The notes below the pieces were generated by a model, which saw only the letters and a list, made by a program, of their open reading frames with translations, searched no databases and had not been told where the DNA came from. DNA of 63,348 bases, the filler included, from Licmophora abbreviata (lineage: Eukaryota): the NCBI GenBank assembly GCA_900291995.1. It is 15 parts of 15 records of this genome, joined end to end, with 100 filler letters (N's around TTAATTAATTAA, not from the genome) between each part and the next. Parts side by side here need not be neighbours in the genome. Positions count along the whole stretch, not along the records: positions 16,688 to 20,220 come from OLMU01005295.1; positions 20,321 to 22,897 come from OLMU01005296.1; 13 more parts are not named here. The stretch is one strand, 5' to 3'. Numbering within the stretch: position 1 is the stretch's first letter; each line of letters begins with the position of its first letter. The translations under genes were made by a program, and so were the position numbers. This document shows, piece after piece, positions 12,138-34,442 of the stretch.

Positions 12138-13700
12138 CTACGGTAACGCAGCTTCGTCGCCGCCAGTCTCTTTCGCTTCCATAACTCTACTGTCGCATTG
12201 CCTGTCAAACAGCGTCTTCTCTCGCTCCGGCAAACCGGGCGAGTACAGCCAAGGATATCGATCTGGGTTGTCTCGTACGGACCATGGAAGCTGCTCTACC
12301 ACAAAGTCTTGCACGCCCCTGTCAAACTCACTCATATGATGCCACTTGTGTTCTCCACTTGCTTTGCATCGAAACAACTCTTTCCTAATATCGCTTTCGG
12401 TGATTCTCTTTTCTCGCACTCGAACCCAAAAGTCGGGTGAGAACCTATGCGGGACAGCTTCTGCCGTCGAAAAGAACTTGATCATGGCCAAAATTGGATG
12501 CGCTGGATCGGAAAAGTGCATGGCGGCAGCAATACCCATATGGAAGGACCGGTTGTTGTCTACGACAACACCACGACGATGTGTACTGTTGGCTTTCAAG
12601 ACGTCCTCATACCTCCACACGAAGGGGTGTCTCCATGTTACGCCTCGCAGTATAGAAGTATCAGGGCGAAGGGTAGTAGAAGAAGAATCGTTGCTGTTGT
12701 AGGTGGTGTCTGTAGCGAGTGGCAGTGACATCATGTCGGGTCGTGACTGCAGCCACGCCACATTGCGTTTGAAGGCCAAGGCGGGCGTGTAAATAGGAAA
12801 GGTGACATTCGGACGATACTCGCAATGCTTGAGATGCGCCATGACTTTGCGAGTAATGATTTCGTCTCCATCATTCTGTAGCACAAGAATCTCCATATTG
12901 TGATGTGATGACGCAGTAGAGATATGGAAGGTCCTTTGCAAGTGCTGAATGGGTAGCGACCGCACGCGATTCTCCAAGGCATACTTATCGGTCCGCAGCA
13001 ACTGAACCGCGTCGGGGGGTACATGGTCCTGCAAATAGTCAATTTTGGATTGAAACCTCTTAAAGCGATCCGATTGCAGCAACTCGGGCAACAAGAAGGG
13101 TTTCGCTTCACCCCGATGGGTCGTGTTCTGTTCCACAATGACAAACTGGTCCACCAAGTCATAAAATTCCAACAGTCGAATCTCGAGATAGTCCACGTCA
13201 AAGCCGAATGCTACGACATCAATAATGTATCTCGTTCGGCCATTGTCGTTGTTGGACTCTCCTGTGAGTACGTGACTGTACGCGGCGTGACTGCAGTCCA
13301 TGTGGATGACCGGTGGGCGGAACGACTGAAGCGGGGTCGTTAAGTTTGACTCCTGCACGAGATAGCGAGCCGCCATGTGATTGAGAATCTGACCATTGTC
13401 CAAGATCCCTCCTGTGCTATTCTCGAGCTCTTGAAAGAAGTTTACAATAATACTGGAGGTGGGTATGGCGGTGGTGGTGCTGATACGGCTGGTGGTTTGC
13501 TGTCTTTTGTCAACAACAGAGTAATCATTGTCGTTGTTGATGTCACTGATGCTTCTCGTCGTTCGTAGCTTCTTATTCTTCCCTACTTGCGGTATATCGA
13601 GCCAATCCAGAGCAAACGTGACAAGCACGACTGAAATGAGACCTGTGGCAGCTCGCCGCAGTGTCCTGGAGAGATGTGGTGCGGCTAGTAAGAGAAGCAT
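12138..13700 (-). CDS. Glycosyltransferase family 17-like (MGAT3/GnT-III-type) type II membrane protein
   Basis: N-terminal anchor; GT17 motifs IIDVVAFGFDVDYLEIRLLEFYDLVDQFVIVEQNTTHRGEAKP and NDGDEI. Confidence 0.8.
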   Translation of the reverse strand: MLLLLAAPHLSRTLRRAATGLISVVLVTFALDWLDIPQVGKNKKLRTTRSISDINNDNDYSVVDKRQQTTSRISTTTAIPTSSIIVNFFQELENSTGGILDNGQILNHMAARYLVQESNLTTPLQSFRPPVIHMDCSHAAYSHVLTGESNNDNGRTRYIIDVVAFGFDVDYLEIRLLEFYDLVDQFVIVEQNTTHRGEAKPFLLPELLQSDRFKRFQSKIDYLQDHVPPDAVQLLRTDKYALENRVRSLPIQHLQRTFHISTASSHHNMEILVLQNDGDEIITRKVMAHLKHCEYRPNVTFPIYTPALAFKRNVAWLQSRPDMMSLPLATDTTYNSNDSSSTTLRPDTSILRGVTWRHPFVWRYEDVLKANSTHRRGVVVDNNRSFHMGIAAAMHFSDPAHPILAMIKFFSTAEAVPHRFSPDFWVRVREKRITESDIRKELFRCKASGEHKWHHMSEFDRGVQDFVVEQLPWSVRDNPDRYPWLYSPGLPEREKTLFDRQCDSRVMEAKETGGDEAALP

Positions 13701-15831
13701 GCTGCTTTGTCATGGTCGGTATGATAGACCTAACTTTTTTCTGTAAAATTGTGAGCTTCGCCGGGCACTCCGAGGTTTACTCCAGTATACATTCCCTAAT
13801 TTTATATATCAACGGAAAACTTTAGTATGAATCAAACAGTATTTTCAACGACCTATCATGACAGATGGTTAATATGTCCAAAACCGTCATAGTCATCAAA
13901 CACGGCATGCGAGCACGAAAAATTGGAGTTGTGGATCGTGTTGATTTTGGCGAAAGAATTTGGAAAACATAGAGGTGGCAACTGGCGCAGCACGTTGATG
14001 TCTTCTGCCCTCTGTATGGCTGCTGCGGGGTCAATTTCGTACTATGGAAGGTTGGTAGTAGGCATGGGATGAAGTAGCAGGAGAGCGTGTGCTAGATAAA
14101 GCACGAGTGACCAGTGACCGCGATCACCACGTTTCAAACAGAGTTCGAAACTGCGGCGCATTCTCACTCATTTCACATTTGCTGTTTGATTCTAATTGTT
14201 GGAATCTTGCACGCTTTGCTACAGAATACTTTTACGACACAGATCCAGTCGGAAGAGGCCATGGGTGCACTACCGAGTCCTCCAGTTGTGTCTGGTGGCT
14301 TCCGTGTTCTTGGCTAGTCGACAATCCCTTTTGTCTGGATGCCCTGTGCGATTTTCTATGCTATGACTCCAGTTGTTGTGTCGACTGTTTCACGGGAGCC
14401 GAGTGCTGCCCTGGTACCGATTGTTGTTCGGGTGCCATTGACTGTACCTGTACGTGAGGGAGAAGTAGACTATGTATTAGTGTGGCTGGCGAAGCAACAT
14501 TCGTCCTACTGCCCGACCGACCAATGAGGGCGTAGAGCTGAAGCTGTGTGTCTCCAGTGGACAGAGAGAGGCAAAGTCTAGTGGTGTGTTCAAGAGAGCC
14601 GCTTCGTGCACTATTACGGCAGCCATTGGAGTGAGGTCCAATGCGTCTCCATCGTTTTTCATGGGGCAAGAAACTTACTGTAGAAAAGATGTACTCGTAT
14701 GTATGCGAGGGTCTCACTTCTTGCAGGCTCATCGCAACTCGGGCTTGGTGATTGTTATTATCAATGCGTAAGATCATTTCGACGCGCGTCTGGCGAAGAA
14801 GACGGCTTGAGTTACGAGCCGAGAGACGGCGGGTGGCGAAGACTATGATGTACTAAGAATATGTTTGCAAGCTTGCAAGGATACTGTTTTGGGCATACCA
14901 GTTACCAGGTATTACCATAGCTACGAGTACAACCGGTAGTATCATACCTGGGCTGGTACTGTAACGCCTACCGTTAAGGGAGAACAAGACCTATCATAGC
15001 TACTTCCAAGCAACACACTAGCCTTTCTGTTGTGACAAACCAGAACGATGCGACGCAGATATCGTGTCTGTATGCCGATGATACCCATCGAGAGAAGAAG
15101 ATGTGACTAGGTCATCAACCGCTTCGCGTCGCGCGTCTCTCNNNNNNNNNNNNNNNNNNNNNNNNNNNNNNNNNNNNNNNNNNNNTTAATTAATTAANNN
15201 NNNNNNNNNNNNNNNNNNNNNNNNNNNNNNNNNNNNNNNNNCCCTAATCCGTACTTATGATATACATTGGTATTCTAAAGTAGACTATCGGTCTTCCTGT
15301 CTTTCTTTTTCTCTGTCCGCGCATGTTGAATGTTGTAATGACACGGCCTGACGGAGGTGGGTCATCCCTATGTAGACTGTCCATCGTCCATAAGTAGAAC
15401 CGAATATCAGCAAGGAAAGGCATCCTGGCAACATCATCCGTCTCTCGTACATCTTCGTATGTTTCCTACGGGAATGCCTTCCGAGCTCCGTTGTCAGTGC
15501 GTAGCTGTTTCCTGCTTATGAACACTCGTTGTGCAAAAAAAGCTCGACGTGCGTGACAAGGTTAGAGGTTCACGTCCGCAGTAGATATCGTACCACGTAG
15601 ACGCATACCAGATTCCTACGTGGAAAACCCGGAATTTCCAGTTTTCAACTGCCTTTCGTATCAGAAGTTCCGCCGAAGCAATGGAAGTTTGCGTGACATC
15701 GAAGTCAGTGAATGAGAGCTATTTCAGCCCCACACAAAACTTACTGCTTGAAGTCGACGTTCGTCCATCTTGCCGGCAGTGGTTTGTATGCTCTCATCCT
15801 TCGAGAGGCTCGATCGTTCACTCTCTACACC

Positions 15832-18400
15832 ATGTTGACGCTTCGCAATCTGCTGCTGTTCAGCGCTGCGCTTGCCCTGCAGCAGGCTGTCGTCCTCGCT
15901 CAAGGCGGGGGCTGTCTTTCGAACCCAGACTTCGACAATCAGTTCCCGGCCCCGGAGGAGGGATCGTGCTGCATGAACTCGGTCTGTGGACTTCCGTGCC
16001 CGGAACCTGTCTCGAAGCCTACCTCAGGTAAGTCCCCGATGAGAGTTTTGGAAAGTCGAGCATCTGAGTTTCGAATCGATGTGTACCCATTTCTGTGGCC
16101 GGTAGTCCCGGTAATTCGAAATCGTGTTCTCATCTCTGTTTGTTTCGATTATACCCAACACAGGGTTCGGTATCGCCGTGGGTGTCTCCATTGCCATTTC
16201 CTTCCTCGTCGGTATGGCCACGATTTTCGTTGTTCACGGTGAGGCCGAGAACTTCTTCGTCTGTGGCCATTCCTTGCCCCTTTGGATCGTTGCCTTCACC
16301 CTTGGTGCGCAGAGTGTCGACTCCAACGCCTTGTTGGGAAACGCCGATAACAGTTACAAGTTCCACTTTTGGGACGGGGCCGTCCTTCCGATCGGTCTTG
16401 GATTGAGCCTCATTCTCAATGGTCTCTTCCTCGCCCGTCACATCAACAAGGAACAAGTCTTGACTCTACCCGACATTCTGGCCAGACGTTACGGCAAGCT
16501 CAACGAGATCCTCATGAGCCTCGCGACCATAGTGTCGTTCATGTTCTTGCTGGCGGGAAACCTGGTGGGTATGGGCAAGATCCTCTCNNNNNNNNNNNNN
16601 NNNNNNNNNNNNNNNNNNNNNNNNNNNNNNNTTAATTAATTAANNNNNNNNNNNNNNNNNNNNNNNNNNNNNNNNNNNNNNNNNNNNCGTCTGGGCCTAC
16701 ACGGTCAGTGGTGGTCTCTTCAGTGTCGCCTACACGGATGTCGTGCAGGGCCTCATTGGGTGGTCGGGGTGCGTCGTCTGCGCCTACTACCTCATTGCCA
16801 ATGAAGATACTGCGGCTCCCCCTCCCAGCCGCGGGTTCCCCCTATACATCTACCCGGACAACATTGGAGATGGGGGCATCTGCGACATGTACCAGGGCAT
16901 TCCATGCACAAACACCGAAGGCGCCTGCTGCTACAACGAAGAACTGTGGTGCCCGGATCCGGATGATCCCACCCTAGAATGTTTGGCGGACAACGGCGCG
17001 TATCCCTTTGGTGACAAGCGTGTCTTTGCGGACCAGATGAGTAACTACCAGGCGCTTTCTCCCTTTCCGAATGCCATGCTCTTCAACTGGGCGACCATTC
17101 TGATTCTTGGATTCGGTAATCTTGCCGCCCTCGACTTTCAGGCTCGTTGTATGGCAGCCAAGACGCCTAGCACGGCCATGTGGGGTTGCCTGATTGGAGG
17201 ATGCATCTCCTTCTTTGTTGGAATTCCGTTTGCCTACATGGGAGCCATCCAGCGGTACGTGAATGCGATGGGAGGGCATCTGATGCCTTGGTTGCTGCTG
17301 TTGTGAAGTAGATTATCTCTCATGACTATTGTATCTATATCTTCTTTTGAATCGCCGCGATTCAATTCTTCAGTGTCTACTATGGACCAGACTCCATTCA
17401 TGCCGAGTTCAGTGTCGACACCTGCAACACACTTTTGGGACTACCAACGTGTGCCGCATGGGTTCCTAGCTCCTTCGCTTTCATCGATCTGTTGACTCAT
17501 CAGGCCCCGAAGGTCCTTGGAGCATGGTGTCTCATTGGTATTGTGGCGGCTTCCATGTCGACCGCAGATGGAGCCATTCTTGCGCTTGGGACTGTTTTCT
17601 CTCACAATATTATGCGACAGGTGGACAGGTGGTATCCCAACTTCATCACGGGGGACAATTTGCTCACGATCACCCGTATTTCTACCTTCCCCTTCACCAT
17701 ATTGGCAACCGTCATTGCTGCCTACTACAAGAGTGACGAAGGTGCGGTTGGTGGCACGGGCTACTTGCTCATTGTAGCCTTTGACTTGGTCCTTGCCACC
17801 GTCGTGCCTTCGCTCTTTGGATGCTTCTACACCAAAACGCCCCGTCCCAATGCCGCCCTCCTGTCTTGGATTACCGGAGCAATTACGCGCATTGTGCTCG
17901 AGTTCGCCTTGCCCAAGGATGGCTGGCTGCTGATTCCGTACGACGTTCCCGAGTTTTTGGACTACGGACCTGCGGCCAGCGCGAACGTGCCTGTCTTTGT
18001 TGATGAGACTTCGGATATCGTCTGGGATCCGTCCATGGAAGAGTGTGTGCAAGAATCCTTTGAAGATTACACTGGCGTGGATTCGCTCGCTGCCTTTGCT
18101 GCTGCGATTCTTGTCTTTACTACGGTGCAGCTCATTGAACATCTTCATGGTCCAATGTTTGACTTGGGTCCCATTATGGAGCCCTACGATAAGGTTTTGG
18201 GAGGCGAAGCAGAAGAAGACGAAAAGGTGGCCGCAGTGGGTGTCTCTTTCTACAATAGCAACGAGAGCAATGCGGAAATCAGCAAGGGAATCGTTGGCGA
18301 CGAGACGCAGATAACGAAGGAAAGCAAGAATGACTCAGACGAGGTTACTCCCGAAGGTGTCGAGGCCGATGACGCAGCGTCGGACGAAGGATCTGCCTAA
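15832..18400 (+). CDS. Sodium:solute symporter (SSS/SLC5, choline-transporter-like clade) with signal peptide and Cys-rich extracellular loops; introns 16028-16163 and 17256-17373; spans gap 16588-16687
   Basis: Motifs ENFFVCGHSLPLWIV, TLPDILARRYG, YTVSGGLFSVAYTDVVQG, DFQARCMAAKT, IVAASMSTADGAILA. Protein is colinear across the gap. Confidence 0.88.
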
Positions 18401-18749
18401 GAGTGGGGAAGGGTTTCGTTGCGCAATCTTTTTCGTTTTTATGTGTGGCATCGTTACAGGAGGGACAAGATGTGATTCTGGCCCTTTTTGCATGTTTTGT
18501 TTTTCGTTTTTAAAAAGTGTCTTGCGAGTGATGATACTCTTTCAGAAACGAGCCGTATGTTGTAAGAGTTTAAGCGGCTCATTGAATAACATGCACCCGT
18601 TTTCTAGGTACAATATATCAATTAGTTCTGGCATAGTGAGTGTCTGTTGTGCTACTGTTTATTGATACGATAGAGGACTGATCGAGACAAGAGACACCCA
18701 TGACAACAACGACGACGACACTTCCAAAATACCCAATACTACGAATGCA

Positions 18750-18961
18750 TTACTGTTCCAACACTCCCTTGACATACTCATACGTAACAAAGCCAATCAT
18801 GGAGGCTGGAACTGCTCGTACCAACTTTAATCCAAAGCCCCGATACAGGCCCCCCGGCTCTTGACGCAATTCCATGGCGGTACGATAGAGTCCCTTGTGT
18901 TCAGGGCTCGCTTGAATGCGCGTCTTGATCAAATCGGCGGGATATCCAACAGCCTACATTA

Positions 18962-19018
<57 letters not shown>

Positions 19019-19738
19019 GATGTGAGTATCAAAACTACCAATCACTCTTCCTCCACCACTACTAGTAGTACGCACCCACGCCACAGTCGCCGCCACGGCT
19101 CCCGACACGAGCGGCACCGTCACTCCATCATGCTGGGGCGTTCCACCAATCTGCTCACTCAAATAGTCCTTGCACATTTCATAAGAGACAAACCAGACCC
19201 CATGCGGTATGCCGTCCCTCAATAAGGTTGCATTCAATCCTCTCCAACCACTACTAGTCGTAGCAGCAGTCGTAGCAGCAGTGGTGGAGAGGAGATTGGT
19301 GCCAACATGGTGCGTCGCTTGCATCAATCGCTTATTGATCACTTGCTGTTCGACCTTGATGAGTTCTACCGGCGACATGAGGAAGGATTGTACGATGCCT
19401 CCGGTACAGCCTCCTACAAAGACGCCCACATATGGATTGCTCTGTGCTTCTTCTTGTTCTCCCCACCTCTTGCCAAGTCCGTATCCACTCATGAGGAGCG
19501 CATTCTGAAAGGGTACGGCTCCAATCATGGCGGAGGAGCCGCGCCAGAGGGATCGGATTCCAAACTGTTGAATGAGAGACTTGTACGTGTGCGAAACAGA
19601 AGTAGGGACGTAGTGTCGTTGAAGAGTGATGCCGGCCTGGTAGCGGGTGAGAATGGTATCGGTGGGCTGGCAGAGCAAGACGGCGGCGCCACCGGAGCAC
19701 CAGCCGGCGAAGAAGTCGATCAGGCCTTCTGAGGACAT
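18750..19738 (-). CDS. Mitochondrial carrier family protein (SLC25; basic amino acid/ornithine/carnitine-carrier-like); intron 18954-19075
   Basis: Three Px[D/E]xx[K/T] signatures (QPTDTILTR, SPVELIKV, YPADLIKTR) plus WRGLNATLLRDGIPHGVWFVSYE and GLYRGFGLKLVRAVPA. Confidence 0.9.
18963..19016. repeat. (AAC)18 microsatellite inside the carrier intron
   Basis: Perfect trinucleotide run read directly from the sequence. Confidence 0.97.
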
Positions 19739-20095
19739 GGGAATTCCGTGCAGGGGGAGAGAGAGAACGAAATGGAGGACCACACAGCACGGTACAGTAT
19801 CGTATCAGAACTGTATCATATCGTAGTGAGTACGCCAAGGAGGCTATATCTTTTTTGATTTTGATGAGAGGGGAGTTTGGATCTTCGGCAGTGTGTGACA
19901 GACAATTTCCGACGTCAAGTTGACACTTTGCAGTACCGAGGATTCCACCTAAGATTCTACAGAGCTGAGAGACAGTGACGCACTTTGTGACATTTCGGTG
20001 AAATCTTGAGATCTTCCGTCTCGTGGGATGAGAAACACAAGATCTCCTCTTGACACACACACATCAACTTCGTCGCTGTCCTCTCATTCAGCACC

Positions 20096-21690
20096 ATGAC
20101 ATTCTCGTCTTCCGCTCCTCGCGGCGTCTTTTCGCAGCTGGCGCGTCATGCTCGAAGCAAGAAGCAGCTGCAGCACCGAGCGCATCATCCGGATCCCTTC
20201 AATCCCAAATCCACGCAGGGNNNNNNNNNNNNNNNNNNNNNNNNNNNNNNNNNNNNNNNNNNNNTTAATTAATTAANNNNNNNNNNNNNNNNNNNNNNNN
20301 NNNNNNNNNNNNNNNNNNNNATGGAAGGCTGCCTTGAAGGCAAGTGTTTTCTAATTTTGTTTCTTTTTGTTTGGTAGACTGTAGGATGAAGTGAAGTCTA
20401 GAAGTATCGTGCCATGCCTTCTTCTCACACTTCCCACACTACTTCTTTTACTAATTACACTTCACTACACTACTATAGGAAGCAGATTTGCCTCGCACTC
20501 GCATGCACGAAGAGACCGAACACGCCCTCAAACTGGGTCTTCCCGGAGCTTCCTCCATTGACGACAAGACCATTCCTACCTTTTCTCGCGGCGAACTCCC
20601 CCACTTTGCCGGAATCAACACCTTCCTCAAGGCCCCCTACATTGAAGATGCCAATTTGGTGGGCAACTACGATGCCGCCGTCGTGGGCGTGCCCTTTGAT
20701 GGCGGCTGTACCTACCGCGCGGGAACGCGCTTTGGGCCGCAGGGCATTCGGCGCATCAGTGCCTTGTACACTCCCTACAACTATGAAAAGGGAATTGACT
20801 TGAGGGAACAAATGACGCTCTGTGATATTGGGGATGTCTTTACTATTCCGGCCAATATTGAAAAGTCCTTTGATCAGATCAGTAATGCGGTGGCGCATAT
20901 TGCCAGTACTGGGACGATGCCCATCATACTGGGAGGGGATCATAGTATTGGATTTCCGACGGTCCGAGGATTGGCGAGTGTCACCAGTAAGAATATTGGT
21001 ATCATTCATGTCGATCGTCATGCGGACATTCAAGAGAAGGATCTAGACGAACGTATGCATACCACGCCGTGAGTGATACTGTCTGCAACACAAAGAGCCG
21101 TCGGTTGTGTGTCCATATTCTTAGTATGTCTCACCAAGTGTTCACGCGACAATCGCCACCGTATTATATATTATATGCTCATTGATTTCTACAGTTATTT
21201 TCACGCCACGAACCTCCCCAACGTGAAGCCCAAGAATCTCGTCCAAATTGGCATTGGCGGTTGGCAAGTGCCCCGTCCGGCCGTCCCCAACATGATTGAA
21301 CGAGAAACCAACATCTTTACCATGGACGACATTGAGCATTACGGAATCGATAAGATTGCCGAAATGGCCCTCGAGCTGGCCTGGGATGGCTGCGATGCCG
21401 TCTACATGTCCTACGACATTGACTCGATTGAAGCGGCCTTTGTGCCGGGTACTGGATGGCCCGAGCCGGGTGGCTTGTTGCCCCGGGAGGCGCTCAAGTT
21501 GGTCGGACAAGTGGCCAAGGAGGGATTGTGCGGGATGGAAGTGGTTGAAGTGAGTCCACCCTACGATCATGCGGATATTACATCCCTGATGGCCCTGCGC
21601 ATTGTGGTGGATGCCCTCGGGGCCATGGTGAGTCACGGTACCATGGGCAAGCACAAGCACATTATTGACAAGGAGTTTGTTCCGATCTAA
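20096..21690 (+). CDS. gdmH: Guanidine hydrolase (GdmH-type ureohydrolase) with mitochondrial-type presequence; exons 20096-20339 (across gap), 20479-21068, 21195-21690; ~409 aa if the gap is empty
   Basis: Closely follows the Synechocystis Sll1077/GdmH sequence as I recall it: IPTFSRGELPHFAGINTFLKAPY, TRFGPQGIRRISALYTPYN, GGDHSIGFPTVRG, DRHADIQEKDLDERMHT, LVQIGIGGWQVPR, DIDSIEAAFVPGTGWPEPGGLLPREAL. It has Trp in GTGWPEPGG where agmatinases have GTGTPEPGG. The N-terminus MTFSSSAPRGVFSQLARHARSKK is basic/Ser-rich with no acidic residues. Confidence 0.9.
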
Positions 21691-21973
21691 GGATTATGAA
21701 TGAACAATGAGAGGAGATGAGCAGAGGCTATTGGTAGTTGCTGAATTCAAGAGAGGAGGGTGGGAGTAGAATTGTGTTAGGATTCAATAGTTTGAATATA
21801 GTGCACGTTTGCTGCAACGAATGAGTCGTGTAGTCGAGTCGCACGAAAGTTCAAACTGCTCTACTCTAGTTATTCTCAGTGGTCTATGTAGCCTTCGAAG
21901 CAGTCCAATCTGTTGTTTCCAGAGTCCTTGTACGAGAAGAGTGCCGTACTGTACTATCATATCACACTAAAGT

Positions 21974-22897
21974 CTACTCCGATATGGAAGTCGCAGCCGG
22001 ATCCGTTCCGACCAAACAGATTCCCCCACCAACAGTCCCACTCCAATCCACCCCTGCAACGACAAGGCTTCTCCCAACAGTGCAAAACCAAGAAGAGTAC
22101 CAAACAAGACACTCCCACCAATAATGATGGGTATACTCTGCATGGCTTGCACACCGAGACTGGACACAAAGAACGACACCATCTCGGCGAGTCCTACTGC
22201 AATGCCGGCACAAATGGCCCATTGCACGCCATGGTAGTCATAGTGTAGTTCGGAAATGCCATTGTCTTTGACAACGATGAAGAGTAAAAGGAAAATTCCA
22301 AGAAAGGCAGCGACAAATTGAAGAATAACGCCGCCTAAGACTGGGTGAATGCTGGCAGAGCCCTGTATCATAGAATATCGGAACGGGTGTACGGTGAAGA
22401 ATGGTGAGATGCGTGTACATTGTGAGGCAAGACGGAAAGCAACATCATAGTTGATATCAAACTTACTTTTTTGATGAAAATGTTGTATAGAGCGTACGAC
22501 AGTGCGCACAGGAGTGCTGGGATGATCCAAACAGCCAGTGGTGGTGCGACGAGAGAGGCCTCTCCTATGCTACTACTACTGCTACTACTCCCCGCATGGT
22601 GATCATGTTTCAAGTATCGATGATGCGGGCGATCCAGTTGGAGGGGCGACGATAGATGAGGCTTGTTGCGTGTGAACAGCAATGCAGTCTGCTCCGTCAC
22701 TTGTCCATGCCAGGAGGTACTGCGAGGTAAGAACGGCGACGGTGATGCTCCGTCCACTTGATGGGAAGCATGATGTGCAAATCTGGCGGGTGGGGTGCGC
22801 GTGCGGGAAGGGGGTGTAGCTGAGGAAGCGTGGGCTACACGCAAGCCCCGACCGTAGCCGATGGTGGGTGTGCTGCGTTGTCCTTTCGAGGACGAAG
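21974..22897 (-). CDS. EamA/DMT-superfamily small transporter; start in gap; intron 22363-22466; probable 1-nt homopolymer error at 22023-22027
   Basis: ALLCALSYALYNIFIKK|GSASIHPVLGG...GSVLFGTLLGFALLGEALSLQGWIGVGLL, a typical DMT C-terminal 'LGE.LS...WIG' motif. The frame is open up to the gap. Confidence 0.8.
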
Positions 22898-22997
22898 NNN
22901 NNNNNNNNNNNNNNNNNNNNNNNNNNNNNNNNNNNNNNNNNTTAATTAATTAANNNNNNNNNNNNNNNNNNNNNNNNNNNNNNNNNNNNNNNNNNNN

Positions 22998-23891
22998 AAA
23001 GGCATCATCCAATAGCTTGTTCCAAGCATCAATACTAGTAGCAGTAGTAGTCGTATAGGAACGGATGGGTCGATCGAGTAAACTGGATACGAGTCTAACG
23101 TTGGCACTTCCAAAGGCCTTTTGGTTTTCATTGGACAGTACATAGTCACAGGCTTCCGCGACTGCCACTTTCGTATAGGCCTTTAGAAAGTTCTGAATGA
23201 GCGGTCCCAAGGACCGATCGAGGGATGCCTTGAACTGCTGTGTAATTTGTTGTCGAATGGGACCAATAATGGGGAGTGAGTTGACAATGTTTCCAAAGAC
23301 ATCGATTTTGGATGTAAATTCGCTAATGCCGTCGTACAGGAGGACGGCGACAAGGGAATTGATGGCGTCGGAGGTGAGAAAGGTGCGCACGGCGGGGGCG
23401 TCGTAGGAAATGTCTTGGAGGGAATCGGTGAGTGGGGAGAGGTCGCCGAGGAGGTCGCGGAGGGAACGGTCTTCCTCCTGGAGTCGTTTGTAGAGGGAGT
23501 CCAAGTTGGTGCGAAGGAGACTTTCGGTACTGTCGATGAGTTCCGTGTCGTTCCAGAGTTCTTGGAGGATGAGACGAGCGTCCTGTTGCGGGAGGATACT
23601 CTCGAGATTCTCCTGTTTGGCCCAGTCTGTGACTTGTTTGGAGGAGGCGTAGAGGGGGTGTCGAAATCGAAAGGATGGGCGCGACTGGTAGTAGTAGTCC
23701 AAGTACTTGTATGATGAGGGGCATTTGGTGGAGTGGGTTTTTCTAGTACCGGTAGTACCTGCTGGCAGTAGTACCGGTACCGGTAGTATTGGTGGTTGCA
23801 TCAGAAGTGGCATCCCGAATGGAAGAACTGTCGCAAGCAGCAGAACAACATAGTAGGAACGATGATGCGAATGGATACACATTGACACCAT
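22998..23891 (-). CDS. Conserved-looking hypothetical protein with signal/transit-like N-terminus (3' end lost in gap)
   Basis: Long ORF with hydrophobic YYVVLLLATVLPF, a basic transit-like stretch, then an amphipathic helical domain. Confidence 0.65.
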
Positions 23892-24238
23892 GGTGGATGC
23901 TGATGGATGTTTGTTTTCTGTTGTGTGTTTTGTGTCGAAAGTAAGACGTTTCAAGTTTGTATCATATGTATCATACGTGGCCGGCCAGACGCACGCCGCG
24001 GTATTTATTTTTCAATTTTGCCTTGAACCTTTTTGAGCTGTGTGTTGTTGTTGTTGTTGTTGCATGTCTGTCGTCGTCGTTCCCTCTCTCGTGCAGACGC
24101 AGAGGTAGGTTACGGATGGCTGTACAGTAGTATGAATGGAAATAGATAAGAGAGAGTTCAAGAAGCAAAGCGAGAGAGATTGTACAAATTCACTTTTCAT
24201 GTTCGTAGTATCACCAGCACCAGCATCACGACGCAATC

Positions 24239-25395
24239 ATGACGAGCTCTGTTTCTAGGATTTGCAGAGGGACTATAGTCTCTGCTCTTCCTACTACTAC
24301 TAGAACAAGACGTGGTCTCTTGATCCTAGTGACGATTCTAGTAGTCCTCCTTGGACTTTGGACAGACGTTTGGTACGACAGCACGACCCTCCGTTCTGTT
24401 CTCACTACTACTGCGACGACTACTACACCTCGACATCCGCCAAGTACTACTACTACTACAACAAAAACTTCCACAACTACTCCTACTAGCGATAAGACTC
24501 CCACAAAACCCGTCGTCTACTACAGCATCGCTCGGAACGACCGTTCTGGAATGGTCATTCACAACATGCTCGAGGCCCATGCCTATGCCTTTGATCACGA
24601 CCGAGCTGCCTACGGGGGTGCCTGTCAAATCGAACGACACGTGAACTTTACCAGTGACTCACACCGCGAGTGGTATATTCGCACCAAACGACAGGAACGG
24701 AAGGATACCAAGACATTGATTCATGCCATGGGTCTGGAAGACGTCCTTCATTTTGCCTGTCCTACCAATCGAACGAGTGTGCAAGAAATCATGTTGGCAC
24801 CGAAGATTCGGTATCGTCGCGAAACCAACAGGCATCACTTGTTTACAGAGGAATGGTTGCAGCACATGTTCTCTGTAGTCCACTATCCAACCACAACAAG
24901 CGACGACACCCAAAAAAGAAGAAGACCGTGGCGGTGCATGTGCGGAGAGGTGATGCCAACCCGTGTACAGCCTCGCAGGTGGACTTCGTGCCCCGGTACT
25001 CGCCCAATGCATTCTACTTGGCCGTGCTCGACCGATACTTGCCGGAAGAAGGAGACTACGATATTTCCGTATACTCGGAAAGTCAAACCTTGGAGCCTTT
25101 TGATGTCTTTCGAGAACGCAACTATACGCTCCATCTCGATACGGATCTAGTCTCGGTATGGAGAGCCTTCTTGTCGGCGGATGTTTTATTCATGAGTAGA
25201 AGTTCATTTGCCTATGTGCCGGCCTTGTTAAGACGCAGTGGGAGAGTCATTTACTACAGAGGACCTTCCAAGCTCAAAAGCTGGACCATGGTGGACCAGG
25301 ATTTGATGGACTTTCATGATGCGGAGATTGAGCGCCTATATGCGGAATATTGTACCAAGAACCATTCAGCAGGAACGGACAATGTAATACGATGA
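24239..25395 (+). CDS. Type II membrane glycosyltransferase-like protein (fucosyltransferase-like 'VAVHVRRGD' motif); frameshift at the A6 run 24912-24917
   Basis: TM anchor, Thr-rich stem, RNDRSG, VAVHVRRGD, ADVLFMSRSSFAYVPALL. The two ORFs join if one A is added. Confidence 0.72.
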
Positions 25396-26107
25396 TGGTC
25401 CGTGAATTGTTTTTGAGGAAGCAGATACAGCAGTTGATTCTTGTTTCAGAAAGAGCAGTGGGTGTCACTGTTTCTCCTCGTCCATGCGTCGAAGAGCGAG
25501 GAACGGATGAGACAAGCGACAGGAGCCAGGAGGAGCGCACTTTTCTCTCCTCGTACAGAAACAACTCAAGTAAAGCCAACAGGACTCCGAGTTGCCGGCC
25601 GGCAGACTCTCTAGCTATGGTAAGGCCATGAACTCATGGGTCTAGCACTTTGCATGGCACCCTCAGATCGCGAGAAAATACAAGACGAGGACTAATCGAC
25701 TTCCACTAAGTGTCATAGCATTACCGGAATTTCCGATTGGAAATAGCCGAGCAAAAGCAACCGTTGATCGACGTCATCAAGGCAGGACGGTCTGGCCGCC
25801 GCGTCAACGATCTCGTTCCGAAAAAGCAGAATGCCAACACTCTCCAACATCCATGTTCCTCGCTCCCTCCTTTGTGTTTCTTCTTGCTTCTCGTCTTCTC
25901 TTGCTCATCACTTTGCACAGACTGTGGAATGATTAACGTTTCCTGTCTCCAGAAAAACTGAAATCCAAAATTGGGCCAAACGGCTTCAAAAGACCACGAA
26001 ATCTGAGAGAGTCAACAAAATATACGCCATCGAGTAGGAAAACTGTACGTATACAGGACACACACGCTACAACAAGACTATCGAGTGGTGTACAGCGCCA
26101 TGTCCAG

Positions 26108-26893
26108 ATGATCACCCCCAAAGTCTCAGCTGCTCGTAGACGTGATGCTTATCTCGTTGCGATTCTGCTCCTTGTTGGGATAGGGCTTCGAAGGGACTTT
26201 TTGTCTGACAGTGCCCTGCCTCGCCTTGAAACCACCAGCAGTGTCCGTCAAAAACAAAGAAACATCAGAGAGAATTTGTACTCTGAGGCTCAGTCATTTC
26301 CAACATGCTGTCGGCACATGCCTTTGCCTTTTCCAGTGGAGCAACCTACGGCGGGTATTGTGAGAATGTCACCGATCTGAATTCCACTACTGGGCACCCA
26401 GGAAAGCAGAGACGCCATAGCATAGTGGTGTGAAAGAGCGTCGAATGGATCAAAAGAAATTGCTGGAAGGAATCGGTCTTCAGGATGCGTTGCCCTTTGC
26501 GTGTCCGACCAACAGCACTCACGACCGACTCATGAAGCAAAGATGGACGTATTATTTTGAGTCGAACTGGCGAGTATTTATGGACGCCTGAATGGATCGA
26601 TTACATTCGATCGATGGTCGAGTATCCAGCAAGAAGAGTGTGGCGGTTCATATCCGACGAGGCGACGTCACTCCATGCAGACACGGCCACCAACTCGTAT
26701 TACTTGGCCGTGCTCGACCGGTACTTGCCCGAATTCGAGGCCGACTATGAGGTATCAATATAACTCGGAAAGCATGTCTGTGGAGCCATTTGAAGTCTTT
26801 CAGGAACGCAATTATACACTTCATCTGGACACGGACATTGTCGCGGTTTGGAGAGCCTTCCTGCCACAATCTACCGACTTTGGCGGGGTGTAG
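26108..26893 (+). pseudogene. Degenerate tandem paralog of the 24239-25395 glycosyltransferase-like gene
   Basis: Homologous fragments (YLAVLDRYLPE, EPFEVFQERNYTLHLDTDIVAVWRAFL, gtggcggttcatatccgacgaggcgac) are spread over several frames, with deletions and a truncated 3' end. Confidence 0.75.
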
Positions 26894-27323
26894 CTTCCTG
26901 GGACGACAATGAATGCTAGGTACTCCTATCAGACAAGCCAGCTCTCTAGCAATAGTGGATGGGTTATGATAGTACGATACATAGGAGTAAGTAGACTATG
27001 GAAATCGACGTCATACATATCTCCGGGTCTTTCCACATTGCTTGCACAACCCGGAGAGTGTCGTGCTCGCTCCTGATTGGTCGATCTCAACGGTGCAAAT
27101 TCCGATCCATACTCTCTAGCGTTCTATGAAGAGTGAATCAAACAAACACTGAGAGTGAACCCAACCACCCTTGAAGGACTATACGAACGCTTCAAAGTGT
27201 TCCGAAACGCACCACGCTTGGTTCTCTCTCCAGTTTCAAGTTCGGCACACAAAAAAGAGCCGCAAGGAGACCACGCACCGTGTCTCTTGTGCTCTGCTTC
27301 GAGTCCGTCTTGTACGCTCCACA

Positions 27324-28079
27324 ATGGCAGTCTTTAGTAAACTGCAGTGGAAGCAGGTCTTGACTCACGTGGGCATCGGCATGGCCTCGGCGAGTTTCTG
27401 GCGCGGCGCCTGGTACGTCCTGGACGACCAGCTCTTTCCGGAGAGTCCCGCCACGAGCGCCGCCGCGTCCTTGGCTCTGGGCACGGCAGGCATGGCAGCA
27501 TCGCAGGGACTGGTGCAAAAGAGCGAGCAGTGGGCGCTGCAGCTCAAGAACGCGAGGAACTGCAGTACGACCAGAACGATGCAGCTCAAATTGGCGCGCT
27601 TCGGGGCGCTCTACAGCATTGCAGTGTCGTGTGTACTGGTGTGGCGTGGTACTTGGATGCTCTGGGATGTCTGTTACGAGCGGTGGAGTGGGGAGAGTCC
27701 CACGTCGCCGGTTCATGCGACGCACAGTGGAGTGCTCTCGCATGGCTTTGCGGCTGTCTGTCTCTTGGGCGGCGGATTCTTTGCGTCGGTGCTGGCGCCG
27801 CCGGCGGCGGCCTCGGTCATTCAAGATTTGGCCGTCAAGGCGGGACAGGGCAAGTATGCGGCGGGACCGGCCGGGAGGGTCGCGCAGCACTTGTGGAAGG
27901 GGGGTACAACGGCGACGACGACGACGAGTGCAACAGCAACGGGCAAACCCTTGTCGCGTGCCCTGCATCACAGTACTACTACCAGTACGACGTCTCGGCA
28001 CAGTCTGCCTTCTAGTGGAAGAAGAAGACCAAGCATACCTTCTTCTTATCCCCGCTTCAAGCCAAACAAGGCCACGTAA
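27324..28079 (+). CDS. Fuseless-domain-like multi-pass membrane protein
   Basis: Repeated WRG(A/T)W..(L/W)D motifs (FWRGAWYVLDD, VWRGTWMLWDV) with intervening TM helices. Confidence 0.65.
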   Translation: MAVFSKLQWKQVLTHVGIGMASASFWRGAWYVLDDQLFPESPATSAAASLALGTAGMAASQGLVQKSEQWALQLKNARNCSTTRTMQLKLARFGALYSIAVSCVLVWRGTWMLWDVCYERWSGESPTSPVHATHSGVLSHGFAAVCLLGGGFFASVLAPPAAASVIQDLAVKAGQGKYAAGPAGRVAQHLWKGGTTATTTTSATATGKPLSRALHHSTTTSTTSRHSLPSSGRRRPSIPSSYPRFKPNKAT

Positions 28080-28681
28080 GCGAAGTGATGGGAGGCGATT
28101 CTCATGCTTGCACACCAAGGAGATGTGTGATGCGCCTACTCTACCTTTTTGATACACAACAACAACATTCAACATGTACATGAATCAATCTACGATATCC
28201 ACAGCAGCCTGTCCAGAGAGCGCAATTTTGAAACCTGCAATTATATTTTGTACCACTAGCTATGAGAGTTTTTTCTTCCAAGTAGTGTCTTTGTAGCGAT
28301 TGGATTAACCCTGCTAGCTTCAAAGTGTGTTGGTCGCAAGATGATAGTCTACAGAGGAGGGCTACCGTGGTACCGGTACAGCAGCTTGGCAGACGTTTGG
28401 TAATATCATAGTTGTACCTGGTACCGATAAGCAATATCACCCATTGTAGCTTGTCGGGAGTACCATAGGAGCGTTCAACTTGTCGCACGGTGCGGTAGCT
28501 ACTAGCGACAGTGTACATAGCGCTATGACACTGACACTGCGCGGAGAGTCGAGTCAGTCAGTCGACATTTTGCCACTTTTTTTAAACTGTGTTTTATAAT
28601 AACCATGTCATACGACAATTATGACTGATTCCCTTGAAAGGTAACTTCTTCTTCTTCTTCTTCTGTAGCTTGATTCTTCCA

Positions 28682-29650
28682 TCACGGTCCAAGGGCACCA
28701 GCACCAGTAGTGGTATCCATCTCAAAGGGCTCCACACAAGCGACAATCGGAAAGGCAATCGGGCCGGTGTTGACCACGCGAATCGTATTTCCCATTCCCG
28801 GCGTTTCAATGAGACTAAAGAGCGGACGATCCAAGCCGTCCTCGGTATAGAGCTGAATGGTCTCCTTGATACTGTTGGGTCCCTGCAAGAGTTCGATCCT
28901 AGCATTGAGAGGTCGGCCGTCGGTCTTCAATACGACTTTGACCATTTGGACAGAGGGATCGAACTCGGATGTGTAGACAGAGCCACCCTGGAGTACTCTG
29001 GTGGTAGTCATGGTGTAGAGATCTGAAGGCATCGCGTCGAGGCCTTCGCTAGAAGCGGACGATCCTTCCAGTTCGGGTGCAACATAGGCGTTCAAGGGGT
29101 ACTCGAGTGGCCCGGTGTTGCGGATAAAGACGGAACTCTTGCCTCCCGGGGTCTCCATGACACATCGGAACGGACGCAGCATTCCTTTCTCCATGGTAAT
29201 GTCCATGTTCTGCGGTGTATTATCCGGTCCCTGGACTAGTTTGATGTTTGCCATGAGAGGCATGCCCTCGGTCTCTAACAGTAATTGGACTCGCTCGAGC
29301 GCGGGGGTCGGAAACGACCATGTTCGGAGCGACCCTCCCTGGATGACGAGCGGGGTGATTGCCTCCCACATATCGTGGGCCTGCTGGGATCCCACTCTTC
29401 CACCCGTGGTTTTCAATTCGGAATATTGCCCCGGCATGGCCAGGGGTGCGCCCGCGGGGTCGTCGCCGCCGAACTGGGAACTGTAGGAAGACTCGTACGC
29501 CGTGGTGCTGGAGTACAAGCGGCCGACTGCGGGAGTCTTCGGTCGTGCAGTCTGAAGAGGGCTAAAGGCCAGTATTCCCCATTCGCTGAAATTCAAGACG
29601 CAGAGCGCCAGGAGCGTACTGCTGCGGGTCTTTTTCATCGGCGCTGTCAT
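28682..29650 (-). CDS. Diatom-typical two-repeat protein of unknown function with bipartite-like presequence
   Basis: Internal duplication QGGSLRTWSF...LETEGMPLMANIKLVQGPDN / QGGSVYT...LKTDGRPLNARIELLQGPN; signal peptide ending ILA-FSP. Confidence 0.8.
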   Translation of the reverse strand: MTAPMKKTRSSTLLALCVLNFSEWGILAFSPLQTARPKTPAVGRLYSSTTAYESSYSSQFGGDDPAGAPLAMPGQYSELKTTGGRVGSQQAHDMWEAITPLVIQGGSLRTWSFPTPALERVQLLLETEGMPLMANIKLVQGPDNTPQNMDITMEKGMLRPFRCVMETPGGKSSVFIRNTGPLEYPLNAYVAPELEGSSASSEGLDAMPSDLYTMTTTRVLQGGSVYTSEFDPSVQMVKVVLKTDGRPLNARIELLQGPNSIKETIQLYTEDGLDRPLFSLIETPGMGNTIRVVNTGPIAFPIVACVEPFEMDTTTGAGALGP

Positions 29651-30077
29651 CGTACTGGTCTCATACACTGCTGTCAAGGATGAAGTGATGGCCGGCGATG
29701 AAACAGATTTTGGTTTTTTGCGAACAGAACAAGTTTTGAGATCCATCCCCGACCACCGACCGCCAATCAGAACTGCTTGAAGATCCATGTGCGTCACTCA
29801 AACGCACGGATCGATCTACTTAACGCAGCTTTTTTAATACCTTTATACCAGTATGTATAGTGGTACCCACATTTCGTTAAATACAGGTGACGTGGCAGAG
29901 CAAGTCCTGCACTTGAGACGTCATGCGGGACCCAACATGGGACGCGGGACCCACAAAACAGTCACGGATACCAAAAANNNNNNNNNNNNNNNNNNNNNNN
30001 NNNNNNNNNNNNNNNNNNNNNTTAATTAATTAANNNNNNNNNNNNNNNNNNNNNNNNNNNNNNNNNNNNNNNNNNNN

Positions 30078-31131
30078 AGCCAACTTCCGCGTAGCAGTGG
30101 CCACTGCGATTGGCCGGTCCGATTGTAGTGCTACTACTATTCAAAGAAGAAAGGAGTGCTTCCGCCACGGACTGTCCCATCTTCCAGGCGAACTCTCCAG
30201 TCTTGGGCAAGGCAAATCTCCCTCCAAATGGGACTGTACAGCAGTCTCCAATAACATGAGCGTTGGGGATGCCAGGGATCGTGTTGGTGACCTTGTCAGA
30301 GACCGTAACAAAGCCCTTGGGGTTGAGCGGAATTGCATCTCGCACAAAATCTGGAGCCCGAATCGGCCAGCTGCTCCAGATCAACGAGGCTCGAATAGTG
30401 CTTCCGTTCGAGTAGTGAATGGTCCCATCGTCGTCAATCTTGCTCATGACGTGGTCTCCCAAGAACTCGATTCCCTTTTCCTTCATCTTTTCGTGAAAGG
30501 GCGCTTTCAAAACTGGAGGCATCGGCCAGTCGACCGGACACGTAATGACGACTCGAGCATTCTCGCGTACTTGAGCCTTGCGCAAGGCCTCGTCGACCAT
30601 GCAGGTGAGTTCAAACGGGGCAGGTGGGCACTTGTAAGGATTCATGGAAATGGCATAGACAAACGTAACTTTTTCTTCCTCTTGTTGCGCCTTGGAAATC
30701 AGCTCCTGGAGCTCCATCCGCTGTCGCGGGATCATGTCCATCGTGCAGACATTGACATGCTTCTGTAGACCGGGAATGCTCGTGGGATCCGGAAGGACCC
30801 CACAGGCCACGACAATGTGGTCGTAGGAGAGGTCCGTCCCGTCCTGAAAGACGACCGTCTTTTCTTGCGCACTCCACCGGGTCACAGTCGTGTTGGTGCG
30901 AAGATCGATCCCAGGCAAGTTGGCTTTCTGCAAGGGCCACTGAACAGCGTCAAGGGCGAGACGGTCGTTCCAGACAAACTGCCACAGTCCGCCCATGGAG
31001 AAGTAGTCTTTCGAATCGACCAGAATAACTCGACATTTCGACAGTCCGTCGTTTTCGATGAGCTTCGTGGCGACCGAGAGGCCCCCAAAGGAAGCGCCGA
31101 CAATCAAGACAACGGGAAGAGGCGACGACAT
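30078..31131 (-). CDS. FAD-dependent oxidoreductase of the sulfide:quinone oxidoreductase / flavocytochrome-c sulfide dehydrogenase family (3' end in gap)
   Basis: VLIVGASFGGLSVA (Rossmann), YDHIVVACG, YKCPPAPFE, VIGDC, LPKTGEFA, GHCYAEVG. Confidence 0.8.
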
Positions 31132-31310
31132 GCTTTCACTGATGTCGTCGTCGATTGATGAATCGGACCGCGTACCAGTATCTTCCTTGGAGTCTACTCC
31201 CTCCGTTCGGNNNNNNNNNNNNNNNNNNNNNNNNNNNNNNNNNNNNNNNNNNNNTTAATTAATTAANNNNNNNNNNNNNNNNNNNNNNNNNNNNNNNNNN
31301 NNNNNNNNNN

Positions 31311-31763: not shown

Positions 31764-33430
31764 CTACACATCCACCCCACGAAGCGCCATATTGGTCCCG
31801 ATCGCACCCATGACAACACCCAACACAGCTACAACAGACGCAAGCTTTCCTTCCACACTGCCCTTATCACCTCGTTGACTCAACATGCGACGGAACATTA
31901 TGGCGGGATAGACAAAGACGAGAGCTGTTCCAAAGGTGGCACCGCCTACGGATGCCACCAAGCCCAGATCGGTTAGTTTGGATGCCAGCAGAGTCACGAC
32001 GCCCACGATGCCCAGCGTTAGCTTGTTGGTGAGGCCGGGAGTACGCTTGTCACTGGAGATCTTGAAGAGGTCAAAAATGCCATCGCGAGTTCCGACAAAC
32101 AACAATGGGTAGCTGGAAGCGGAAAGCAACAACAAGAGTGTGAACACAAGCACAATGGAGAAGCTTCATCTTTGTCGTCTAGCACACACCTGAACGTAAT
32201 GGAAATCGCCACTGCAATTCGACTCATGCTCATCAACACATCCTGCGTCGAATAATTGTTGAGAATAAGTCCATTGCTCGCCGCTCCAAACGTCAAGAAC
32301 CCCAAAGCCGTAATGACGCTATACAGCACGATACTCGTGCCAAAACTCAAGGCCGTCATGAGGTTGAAACGTTGCAACGTGTTATTCTTGAGTTCGCGAT
32401 ACAAGGTGGGCGAGAGGAAGTGTGCAATAAAAGCATTACTCAACATGCACATGAGAATCAACGACTGCGGGGATAGTACGCCCGCAGCGCCCGTGGATCC
32501 AAACACGGGTGGTGCCAGTGCCGTCGAGACGAAGGCTCCTCCCTCGGCATAGGACTTTCCAAAGTACCGAACTCCCATGGCAAGCGTCGTGTAGAGCATT
32601 CCAATAATACCCACAAGCGAAAAGGGAGCGAGAGAACTGAGATTCTTCAAAAAGCACAGCGGCATCAAGACCGCCCCCGTGATGCCCAACAAACTCTGGG
32701 TCCTTGTCACGGCCACTCCGAGACTTTTCAACAGGGCGACTCCTGTATCGGCCAGAATCATACTGTAACTTAAGTTTCCCGCAAAGCAGTCAATAAAACA
32801 CGAAAGAGCAATCAGCCAGCTACTCTTAGTTCCAACCGTGGCATCCCAGGCATCACTGTAGGACTGCGTCTTGGTTTGGGCACAGACACGTGCAATCATG
32901 CCAAAGGTGTATGCTGAAATGACGCCCATCAAGGCAATCAAGCCCGTGGCAGGAATCACCGCCGAGGGAGAATTTCCAAATGCAGCAATACCTGTACAAC
33001 AGAGCGTTGTTGGAGAATGGGGGCGAGAGAATGGGCATGTGTTACTTGAGTACAGCTCTCCGACCACGGAAAACCTTCAAAGCACCTCGACTGCAGGCAT
33101 GCAAACGTAGACACCCGACTCACCCGCAGGAAGACTCAAGACGCCCGCTCCAACAATACTCTTAACGAGATTGAAGACCTCATTGGAAATCGTAGTCGTG
33201 CCCTCCCCGGAGGTACTTTCGGCGGCGCCTGCACGCAACGACGACGTTGTCGTCGTTGTTGTGGCTGTAGGAGTAGTGAGTGCTGACTTGTTCCTGTTGC
33301 TGGTGGCTGCGGGACGTCCTACAGACGCGCGACGACGGGGCATCGACAAGGCGGAAGCGACATAGCCCTTATTGCTACTAGTGATTGAAAGGAGAAGAGC
33401 GACGAGCAACAGTGTTTTGCTGGTAAACAT
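31764..33430 (-). CDS. AAAP/Aa_trans amino-acid transporter with bipartite-like presequence; introns 32992-33123, 32113-32189
   Basis: EVFNLVKSIVGAGVLSLPAG, PLCFLKNLSSLAPFSL, AFIAHF, GFLTFG...ILNNY, SYPL. Canonical introns restore the frame. Confidence 0.9.
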
Positions 33431-33854
33431 ATTGAATTTTCGGTGGCGAAATCTGAAATCTGGAAACTGAATCTGAAATTTGAGATACTTCGAGACACCG
33501 TCACGAACAGTTCAAATCTTTCTCAAGCTACAGCAGCTAAAGACTGCAATGAATCCGAAATGCTTTTCAAAGAAGGTTCAGGCACAGCTACGGTGACGAT
33601 GGTGTGTTGGTGTCATCACATCAACGCGCCGCCGATGAAAGTGCCAGCTTTTGAGCGGTTCCAGACGCGATCTTGAGATCTCTCGGAGGACGGACGGACG
33701 GATGGCACATCTCACATCTCTTCTTGTCCGTCGGCTGGCAGACAGACAGGGTTCGTATGTTGCGCGCCCGTCGGCACGTACGTACTTTCTTGAAAAACGG
33801 TTGGCTCTCGTGTCGTCCACTTTTTGTTTCGAACATCAACATTGCATGTTGACA

Positions 33855-34442
33855 ATGGTCGGTGGTCGATTTGCTATCTGTTGCCTCTGGTGGGCATGGC
33901 TGCTGCCACTCAGCAGTCAGGCTTTCGCGCCTGCTCTCCCGAGTCGGACATTGACCACGCCTGCTGCGATTCGCTTGCCTCATCGCAGCAGCGTTCCGAC
34001 ATCACGGGGTCGCACTCTGATTTCGTTGTCGGAAAGCGTCGCCGCTGTTGATGAGATCGACGATTCACCTTCCGATGACCAGGGTACATCTACCATGACG
34101 GCCAGTATCTTTAACCTGGTCAAGGGAATTGTTGGAGCCGGCGTACTCAGTCTTCCTGCTGGGATTGCTGCCTTTGGAAACGCACCATCCGCAGTTGTTC
34201 CTTCTATCGCACTAATTGCTGTAATTGGAACCGTCAGTGGCTACTGCTTTAGTCTGATCGGACGTGTCTGCTCCTTTACGGGTGCCACATCCTATCGGGG
34301 TGGATGGGAAGAAAGTGTTGGGACGGGCAGTAGCTGGTTGCCAGCAATCTCGGTGCTCCTAAAGACACTTTTCGCCGTCTTGGCCTACAGCATGATCCTC
34401 GCCGACACAGGCACGGCTCTGCTCAGCACGATCGGAGTTGAA
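33855..34442 (+). CDS. AAAP/Aa_trans amino-acid transporter, plastid-type presequence (SSQA-FAP); 3' part lost in gap
   Basis: Signal peptide + AFAP; SIFNLVKGIVGAGVLSLPAGIAAFG. Confidence 0.88.

Follow-up and report, generated by a model that had tools for sequence, protein, structure and literature searches.

A predicted guanidine hydrolase of the diatom Licmophora abbreviata and a putative mitochondrial guanidine-assimilation module in algae

The diatom Licmophora abbreviata carries a spliced nuclear gene whose product is very probably a guanidine hydrolase, and this enzyme is, in our judgement, likely to be central to a mitochondrial module for guanidine assimilation in eukaryotes. By prediction the enzyme belongs to a known family (GdmH); what is new is the arrangement of the eukaryotic module in which it sits, whose mechanism can be tested. 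In the proposed module, a sodium symporter would take up guanidinium at the plasma membrane, a carrier of the SLC25 family would move it into the mitochondrial matrix, and the matrix hydrolase would convert guanidine to urea and ammonium, the urea then being split by a mitochondrial urease. More tentatively, a Fuseless-like protein could serve as an accessory membrane component for the passage of ions, urea or nickel, and nickel might reach the enzyme through a COG0523 GTPase or through UreG/urease machinery of mitochondrion type, given that GhaA and GhaB were not found in the assembly.

GdmH, GhaAB and GimABC are well documented from cyanobacteria (available parts of PMC12704784, PMC12186494, PMC10119275 and PMC12623156). 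In the literature examined, as far as its available text extends, guanidine breakdown is described for bacteria only, and one review expects eukaryotic counterparts (PMC12186494). Literature searches, with most subscription journals outside their scope, returned neither an assay of a eukaryotic guanidinase nor a report of the cluster. A broader reading, which we consider about evenly balanced, is that a guanidine pathway assembled within eukaryotes is common to diatoms, Mamiellophyceae and probably also to haptophytes and brown algae. It would comprise a bacterial guanidinase placed in mitochondria, an SLC5A7-like guanidinium importer, an SLC25 guanidinium carrier, a Fuseless protein and nickel loading free of GhaA/GhaB, with the cluster having spread between algal lineages. 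If so, dominant eukaryotic phytoplankton would draw nitrogen from guanidine, and these symporter and carrier subfamilies would gain their first substrate and Fuseless proteins their first metabolic context. Guanidine would also join the organic nitrogen for which eukaryotic phytoplankton compete, its use being tied to nickel, and some "agmatinase" entries in diatom urea-cycle models would be mislabelled. With a four-gene module defined in both diatoms and picoplanktonic green algae, the question can be put to the test in tractable algae.

The gene and its neighbours

The analysed stretch of 63,348 nucleotides (the window) consists of contigs chained through 100-base N/linker spacers and is drawn from an assembly of 29 Mb in 7,734 contigs, which protein similarity identifies as that of a diatom. 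Exon 1 of the hydrolase spans two of these contigs, OLMU01005295.1 (C5295) and OLMU01005296.1 (C5296). Closing the spacer between them with zero bases yields PFNPKSTQGWKAALKEA, equal in length to the diatom homologs; no read or contig bridging this join, and none with the hydrolase spliced, was found among four runs over 20321-22000, all of which were contigs. The symporter gene upstream is also collinear across its own join (16588-16687, about 17 residues missing), which argues that the contigs around the hydrolase lie in genomic order; no continuing frame was found over two further contig joins. The spliced model has a single stop, at its end (Table 1). Its two introns bear out the preliminary description of an intron-bearing gene, and the motifs named there (EADLPRT, IPTFSRGELPH, GTGWPEPGG and HTT-P-Y) are all in frame. 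The position of intron 1 (K|EA) is common to another diatom locus, L111, while intron 2 splits the Pro codon of HTTPY.

Table 1. Features at and around the predicted hydrolase gene, in window coordinates
Feature	Position	Strand	Remark
GdmH-clade ureohydrolase (putative guanidine hydrolase), 409 aa	20096..21690	+	Sequence model
Hydrolase coding pieces	20096-20220, 20321-20339, 20479-21068, 21195-21690	+	ATG at 20096
Presequence of mitochondrial type, 29 aa (6 R/K, no D/E), with Arg at -2 relative to conserved HHPD	20096..20182	+	Composition
Contig-join N/linker spacer (C5295/C5296) within hydrolase exon 1	20221..20320	.	Homology: zero coding bases lost
Hydrolase intron 1, GC-AG, phase 0	20340..20478	+	GC donor inferred from homology
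Hydrolase intron 2, GT-AG, phase 2, in-frame TGA inside	21069..21194	+	Sequence
SLC25 mitochondrial carrier, one intron 18954-19075	18750..19738	-	Head-to-head with hydrolase, 357 bp between start codons
Sodium:solute symporter, choline-transporter-like subfamily, N-terminal hydrophobic leader, two introns	15832..18400	+	Putative guanidinium importer
Fuseless-family (PF15993) membrane protein	27324..28079	+	Contig order alone links it to hydrolase
EamA-like transporter, 3' part, convergent with hydrolase	21967..22569	-	E 0.004, below cut-off

The gene is widespread in algae and, as the preliminary description had overlooked, lies within a conserved transporter cluster. The 3' part of the symporter gene, the carrier gene and hydrolase exon 1 share one contig, and carrier and hydrolase probably share a bidirectional promoter. 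When a green-algal (Micromonas-type) cluster carrier was compared with the whole assembly, the window carrier was the best of 22 matches (140 bits; next, 58). The window symporter is 50-68% identical to green-algal cluster symporters. For green-algal symporter and Fuseless queries, the window copies were the only matches in the whole assembly, and the chance of such a sole gene falling less than 10 kb from the hydrolase is near 20 kb in 29 Mb. The join between the Fuseless gene and the hydrolase is bridged by no gene, and a 516-bp contig of intermediate number lies outside the window. A fold assignment for the Fuseless-like protein was rejected: the model had a pLDDT of 69.5, the best VIA Z was 8.3 (rmsd 4.9) with generic helical bundles, and Foldseek gave no match to the model at E≤0.001. 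Membership of the EamA-like gene is doubtful, because it was not found in other algal clusters. The locus also differs from the Synechocystis system: no guanidine-I riboswitch was found in window 14000-30000, and no GimABC-type ABC importer stands beside the hydrolase, whose neighbours are the symporter, the SLC25 carrier and the EamA-like gene.

Elsewhere in the window, about 20 AAC repeats occupy 18960-19020 inside the carrier intron, and a divergent pair of paralogous amino-acid-transporter-like genes lies at 31764-33511 (-) and 33639-34442 (+). Other frames, at 28682-29797 (-), 30078-31210 (-), 12138-13709 (-) and 24209-26850 (+), were labelled by eye only: one repeat-containing protein that starts with a signal-like leader, one FAD-oxidoreductase-like gene interrupted at a join, and several frames resembling glycosyltransferases.

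A metagenome scan returned 80 loci, 33 of them classed as eukaryotic and falling into 11 groups at 95% identity: two transcript-sized, one diatom and eight green-algal. Locus L137 clusters with proteins of Bathycoccus prasinos and L141 with those of Micromonas commoda; for L116 we infer an Ostreococcus-like source. All eight green-algal groups with flanks contain a Fuseless-family gene. The SLC25 carrier lies upstream on the opposite strand in seven of the eight (the miss has a short fetched flank) and the sodium symporter is present in five, every miss having a short fetched flank. Long, basic, mitochondrial-type leaders begin four of five Fuseless-like proteins inspected (L116, L137, L141, L129 and L186); the Ostreococcus-like copy and the window copy, read from its first ATG at 27324, have no such leader. 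In the diatom loci L111 and L112, only a 47-residue carrier fragment remains beside the hydrolase gene. At L111:578-720 (-) this remnant of the cluster carrier stands head-to-head with gdmH, which suggests decay of the cluster.

Relatives of the symporter bear on its substrate. The nearest solved ones are high-affinity choline transporters, which carry a small organic cation. Further relatives are the eight strongest of 52 plasmid-collection matches, all at E 1e-25 or lower. In Rubrobacter, the symporter belongs to a riboswitch-gdmH-symporter-urease locus; in Nonomuraea it adjoins gdmH; and in Acaryochloris it starts 91 bases after a guanidine-I riboswitch. The Rubrobacter indicoceani locus thus pairs gdmH with the same symporter subfamily as the diatom does (symporter 31% identity, E 7e-59) but is a bacterial operon with a distant gdmH (64% identity) and without carrier or Fuseless protein. 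In five haloarchaeal matches (four plasmids and Natronorubrum), the symporter gene has a ureohydrolase of about 36% identity nearby, which lacks the specificity Trp in the two that were checked; the subfamily may therefore take other guanidino compounds. The substrate may thus be another guanidino compound, but guanidinium has the strongest support, and on these comparisons the diatom symporter quite likely carries it. In the Acaryochloris case (A. marina plasmid pREB7, L203:5708-7422), the riboswitch stands directly before the symporter gene and an ammonium transporter lies upstream; this cyanobacterial symporter could be a guanidine importer of non-ABC type.

The best surviving alternative, though unlikely, is that a mitochondrial guanidine hydrolase mainly recycles or detoxifies endogenous guanidine and that the nitrogen genes around it are in loose linkage and serve no common pathway. 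Symporter and hydrolase genes are indeed on different scaffolds in all three named diatom genomes (Fistulifera, Seminavis and Mayamaea), and an internal source is conceivable, given that guanidine-releasing homoarginine-6-hydroxylases are shown in plants, with putative green-algal orthologs (available part of PMC11018352). Mamiellales also cluster nitrogen genes in general: their nitrate-assimilation clusters likewise combine eukaryotic uptake and assimilation genes, albeit for a different substrate and with different genes, and the main text of PMC2944026, in its available part, contains neither agmatinase nor arginase. Against mere recycling, the gene has the same three orthologs as neighbours in two lineages that are far apart, and the bacterial relatives of the symporter follow guanidine riboswitches, which points to uptake. 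Returning to the assimilation module, we regard it as fairly likely that the SLC25 carrier serves the guanidine pathway.

Family identity and substrate

The identification of the product as GdmH rather than agmatinase, already proposed in the preliminary description, is supported by structure and profile scores. For exon 2, the score is 309 bits with the GdmH of Synechocystis (7ESR/7OI1), 304 with the Nitrospira inopinata guanidinase (9FEK) and 104 with guanidinobutyrase, and exon 3 follows the same pattern across ureohydrolase structures. The E value to 7ESR is 1e-91, against 7e-29 for the next family, far beyond chance. A profile of 60 relatives scores 629 bits on 7ESR and 612 on 9FEK, and at most 212 on every other ureohydrolase. 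The hydrolase possesses an N-terminal extension ahead of the ureohydrolase core and aligns to 7ESR from residue 23 and to 9FEK from residue 30, whereas alignments to other families begin at query residue 36 at the earliest. The model contains GGDH, DRHAD, MHTT and SYDID, which in the arginase family supply the dinuclear metal ligands and the catalytic His. The Trp and the N-terminal extension are reported (Funck and colleagues, 2022) to narrow the GdmH pocket. Both specificity residues are kept: in the alignment to the 7ESR chain, GGCTYR falls on position 99 and PGTGWPE on position 307, which with an offset of 2 are the Thr97 and Trp305 (Synechocystis numbering) named in the available part of PMC11410670.

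The best structure match is thus the Ni-dependent GdmH (Sll1077) of Synechocystis sp. PCC 6803, with which the diatom enzyme shares the N-terminal extension, the equivalents of these two residues and the metal ligands. It differs in being nuclear, spliced and preceded by a mitochondrial-type leader, and in having HTTPY for HTCPW. With the N. inopinata guanidinase it shares the HTTP motif, the Thr and the Trp; in that organism, import is by an APC permease under riboswitch control (available part of PMC12186494), whereas the diatom has a sodium symporter and a mitochondrial carrier. The preliminary description gave HTCPW correctly for Synechocystis, but HTTPY is no departure from the family: HTTPW occurs in 9FEK and in 80 of 80 GTDB relatives, and the best 120 homologs comprise 89 with HTTPY, 20 with HTTPW, eight with HATPY, one with HTCPY and two unmatched. 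HTTPY was rejected as a weak signal of functional change, Tyr being usual in algal relatives and the residue after Pro varying over the superfamily (F, M or L).

The named homologs come from many diatoms and from Ectocarpus, Phaeothamnion, Diacronema, Phaeocystis and Pycnococcus; a further one is an MMETSP entry whose name starts with "Tetr", read as Tetraselmis. They carry agmatinase or hypothetical labels, as expected from the earlier suspicion of mis-annotation. Funck et al. (2022) are reported to predict GdmH homologs in heterokont algae.

It is rather improbable that the algal enzyme has moved to methylguanidine, dimethylguanidine or a guanidino acid, the cluster serving that compound instead. 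Such a shift would fit the diatom-type replacement, close to the active site, of GTTY by GCTY and of the Trp that follows HTTP by Tyr, the occurrence of the symporter near Trp-less archaeal ureohydrolases, and the dimethylguanidine and metformin hydrolases through which the superfamily is seen to shift substrate (available part of PMC11399263). However, both named specificity residues are kept, the position after Pro is variable in any case, and the enzyme is 70-77% identical to riboswitch-controlled bacterial enzymes. An ordinary Mn-dependent agmatinase for polyamine synthesis, in line with the database names and with diatom literature that places agmatinase with the urea cycle (available parts of PMC5156380 and PMC7542463), is very improbable, since the NCBIfam agmatinase models (TIGR01230/PRK02190), with exons scored apart, total 81+68 = 149 bits against a cut-off of 174 and 101+92 = 193 against 302, agmatinase structures reach at most 160 bits against 629 with the profile, and the Trp and the N-terminal extension reportedly narrow the pocket, as noted above.

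Origin, targeting and nickel supply

Guanidine hydrolase thus remains the preferred reading, and its closest sampled relatives are bacterial. A quick tree of 88 rows, made with IQ-TREE, supported by SH-aLRT only and built without cyanobacterial and Nitrospira GdmH, has a branch (95) that sets the 45 eukaryotic rows apart from the others. Next to them stand a SAR324 genome with three similar proteins (97) and then alpha-, beta- and gammaproteobacteria. Within the eukaryotes, brown algae fall outside a group of diatoms, green algae and haptophytes (97), and an Ostreococcus-like row lies among the diatoms (83-94), a pattern that hints at transfer between algae. The bacterial origin proposed in the preliminary description is consistent with this tree, while its endosymbiotic (plastid) variant is not favoured, because cyanobacterial GdmH scores 309 bits (Nitrospira, 304) against 357-364 for the nearest relatives.

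In these SAR324 and proteobacterial relatives, gdmH belongs to operons with a riboswitch, an ABC transporter and a His-rich orphan. Of 80 GTDB loci fetched, 25 were scanned for the guanidine-I riboswitch and 24 contain it. An ABC binding protein is encoded at 75 of the 80, the His-rich orphan of about 150 residues at 70 and urease genes at five; a HypA-like motif was absent within about 4 kb (11 loci being short). The His-rich protein (for example, L101:5254-5712; among L031-L110) usually lies directly downstream of gdmH, occurs in nearly all alphaproteobacterial gdmH loci and has 2,053 homologs, the named entries among the best 120 being all bacterial. It belongs to no Pfam or NCBIfam family, has no useful Atlas match and is a candidate new nickel chaperone for GdmH. 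Unlike these operons, the diatom assembly yielded no His-rich partner (one query).

The relatives share with the diatom enzyme the HHP N-terminus and an Arg-rich leader. In the leader of the diatom hydrolase the hydrophobic moment is 0.69. A usable start was available for 79 of 97 eukaryote-type proteins; 53 of these 79 leaders are free of acidic residues and the median moment is 0.67. The corresponding values for 74 of the 80 bacterial proteins are five and 0.47. Bacterial leaders are as Arg-rich as eukaryotic ones, and Arg stands two places ahead of HHP in 71 of 74; R-x-HHP was accordingly rejected as proof of a mitochondrial cleavage site. The earlier proposal that introns and a targeting peptide were gained is supported for the introns; on the grounds given here, the targeting peptide appears remodelled from the Arg-rich leader already present in the bacterial relatives and not newly acquired. 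The mitochondrial type of leader suggested earlier agrees with its acid-free, basic composition, from which a mitochondrial location of the hydrolase appears likely.

The hydrolase is probably nickel-containing. The HypA/HypB partners noted earlier as missing from the window were not found in the whole, fragmentary assembly either: a PF01155 search gave no HypA, and of 20 matches to PF02492, the 13 frames classified were all best as UreG or COG0523, with no HypB among them. UreG, which the preliminary description had proposed as a search target, is present. One UreG (C5167, L019) and one urease (C5168, L028) have basic, mitochondrial-type leaders and lie on consecutively numbered contigs, which makes a nickel-loading route in the matrix plausible. 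Elsewhere in the assembly there are another eukaryote-type urease (C3644) and a UreG rich in His (C3624). With bacterial contigs and two eukaryote-type copies of both genes present, these partners may belong to more than one organism. A dedicated chaperone is likewise not known for the N. inopinata guanidinase, which binds nickel plus manganese, according to the available part of PMC11410670.

Bacterial contamination of the eukaryotic assembly is seen as high-GC, intron-free contigs (L002-L006, L008, L011, L015, L016 and L021). In Bathycoccus loci, a further membrane protein (L137:4095-5444, -) is encoded between the carrier and gdmH; it resembles nickel transporters in its His motifs only, a likeness that Pfam and NCBIfam, in which it has no match, did not support. 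A fragment of a homolog of this protein is present elsewhere in the diatom assembly (C3188, L206).
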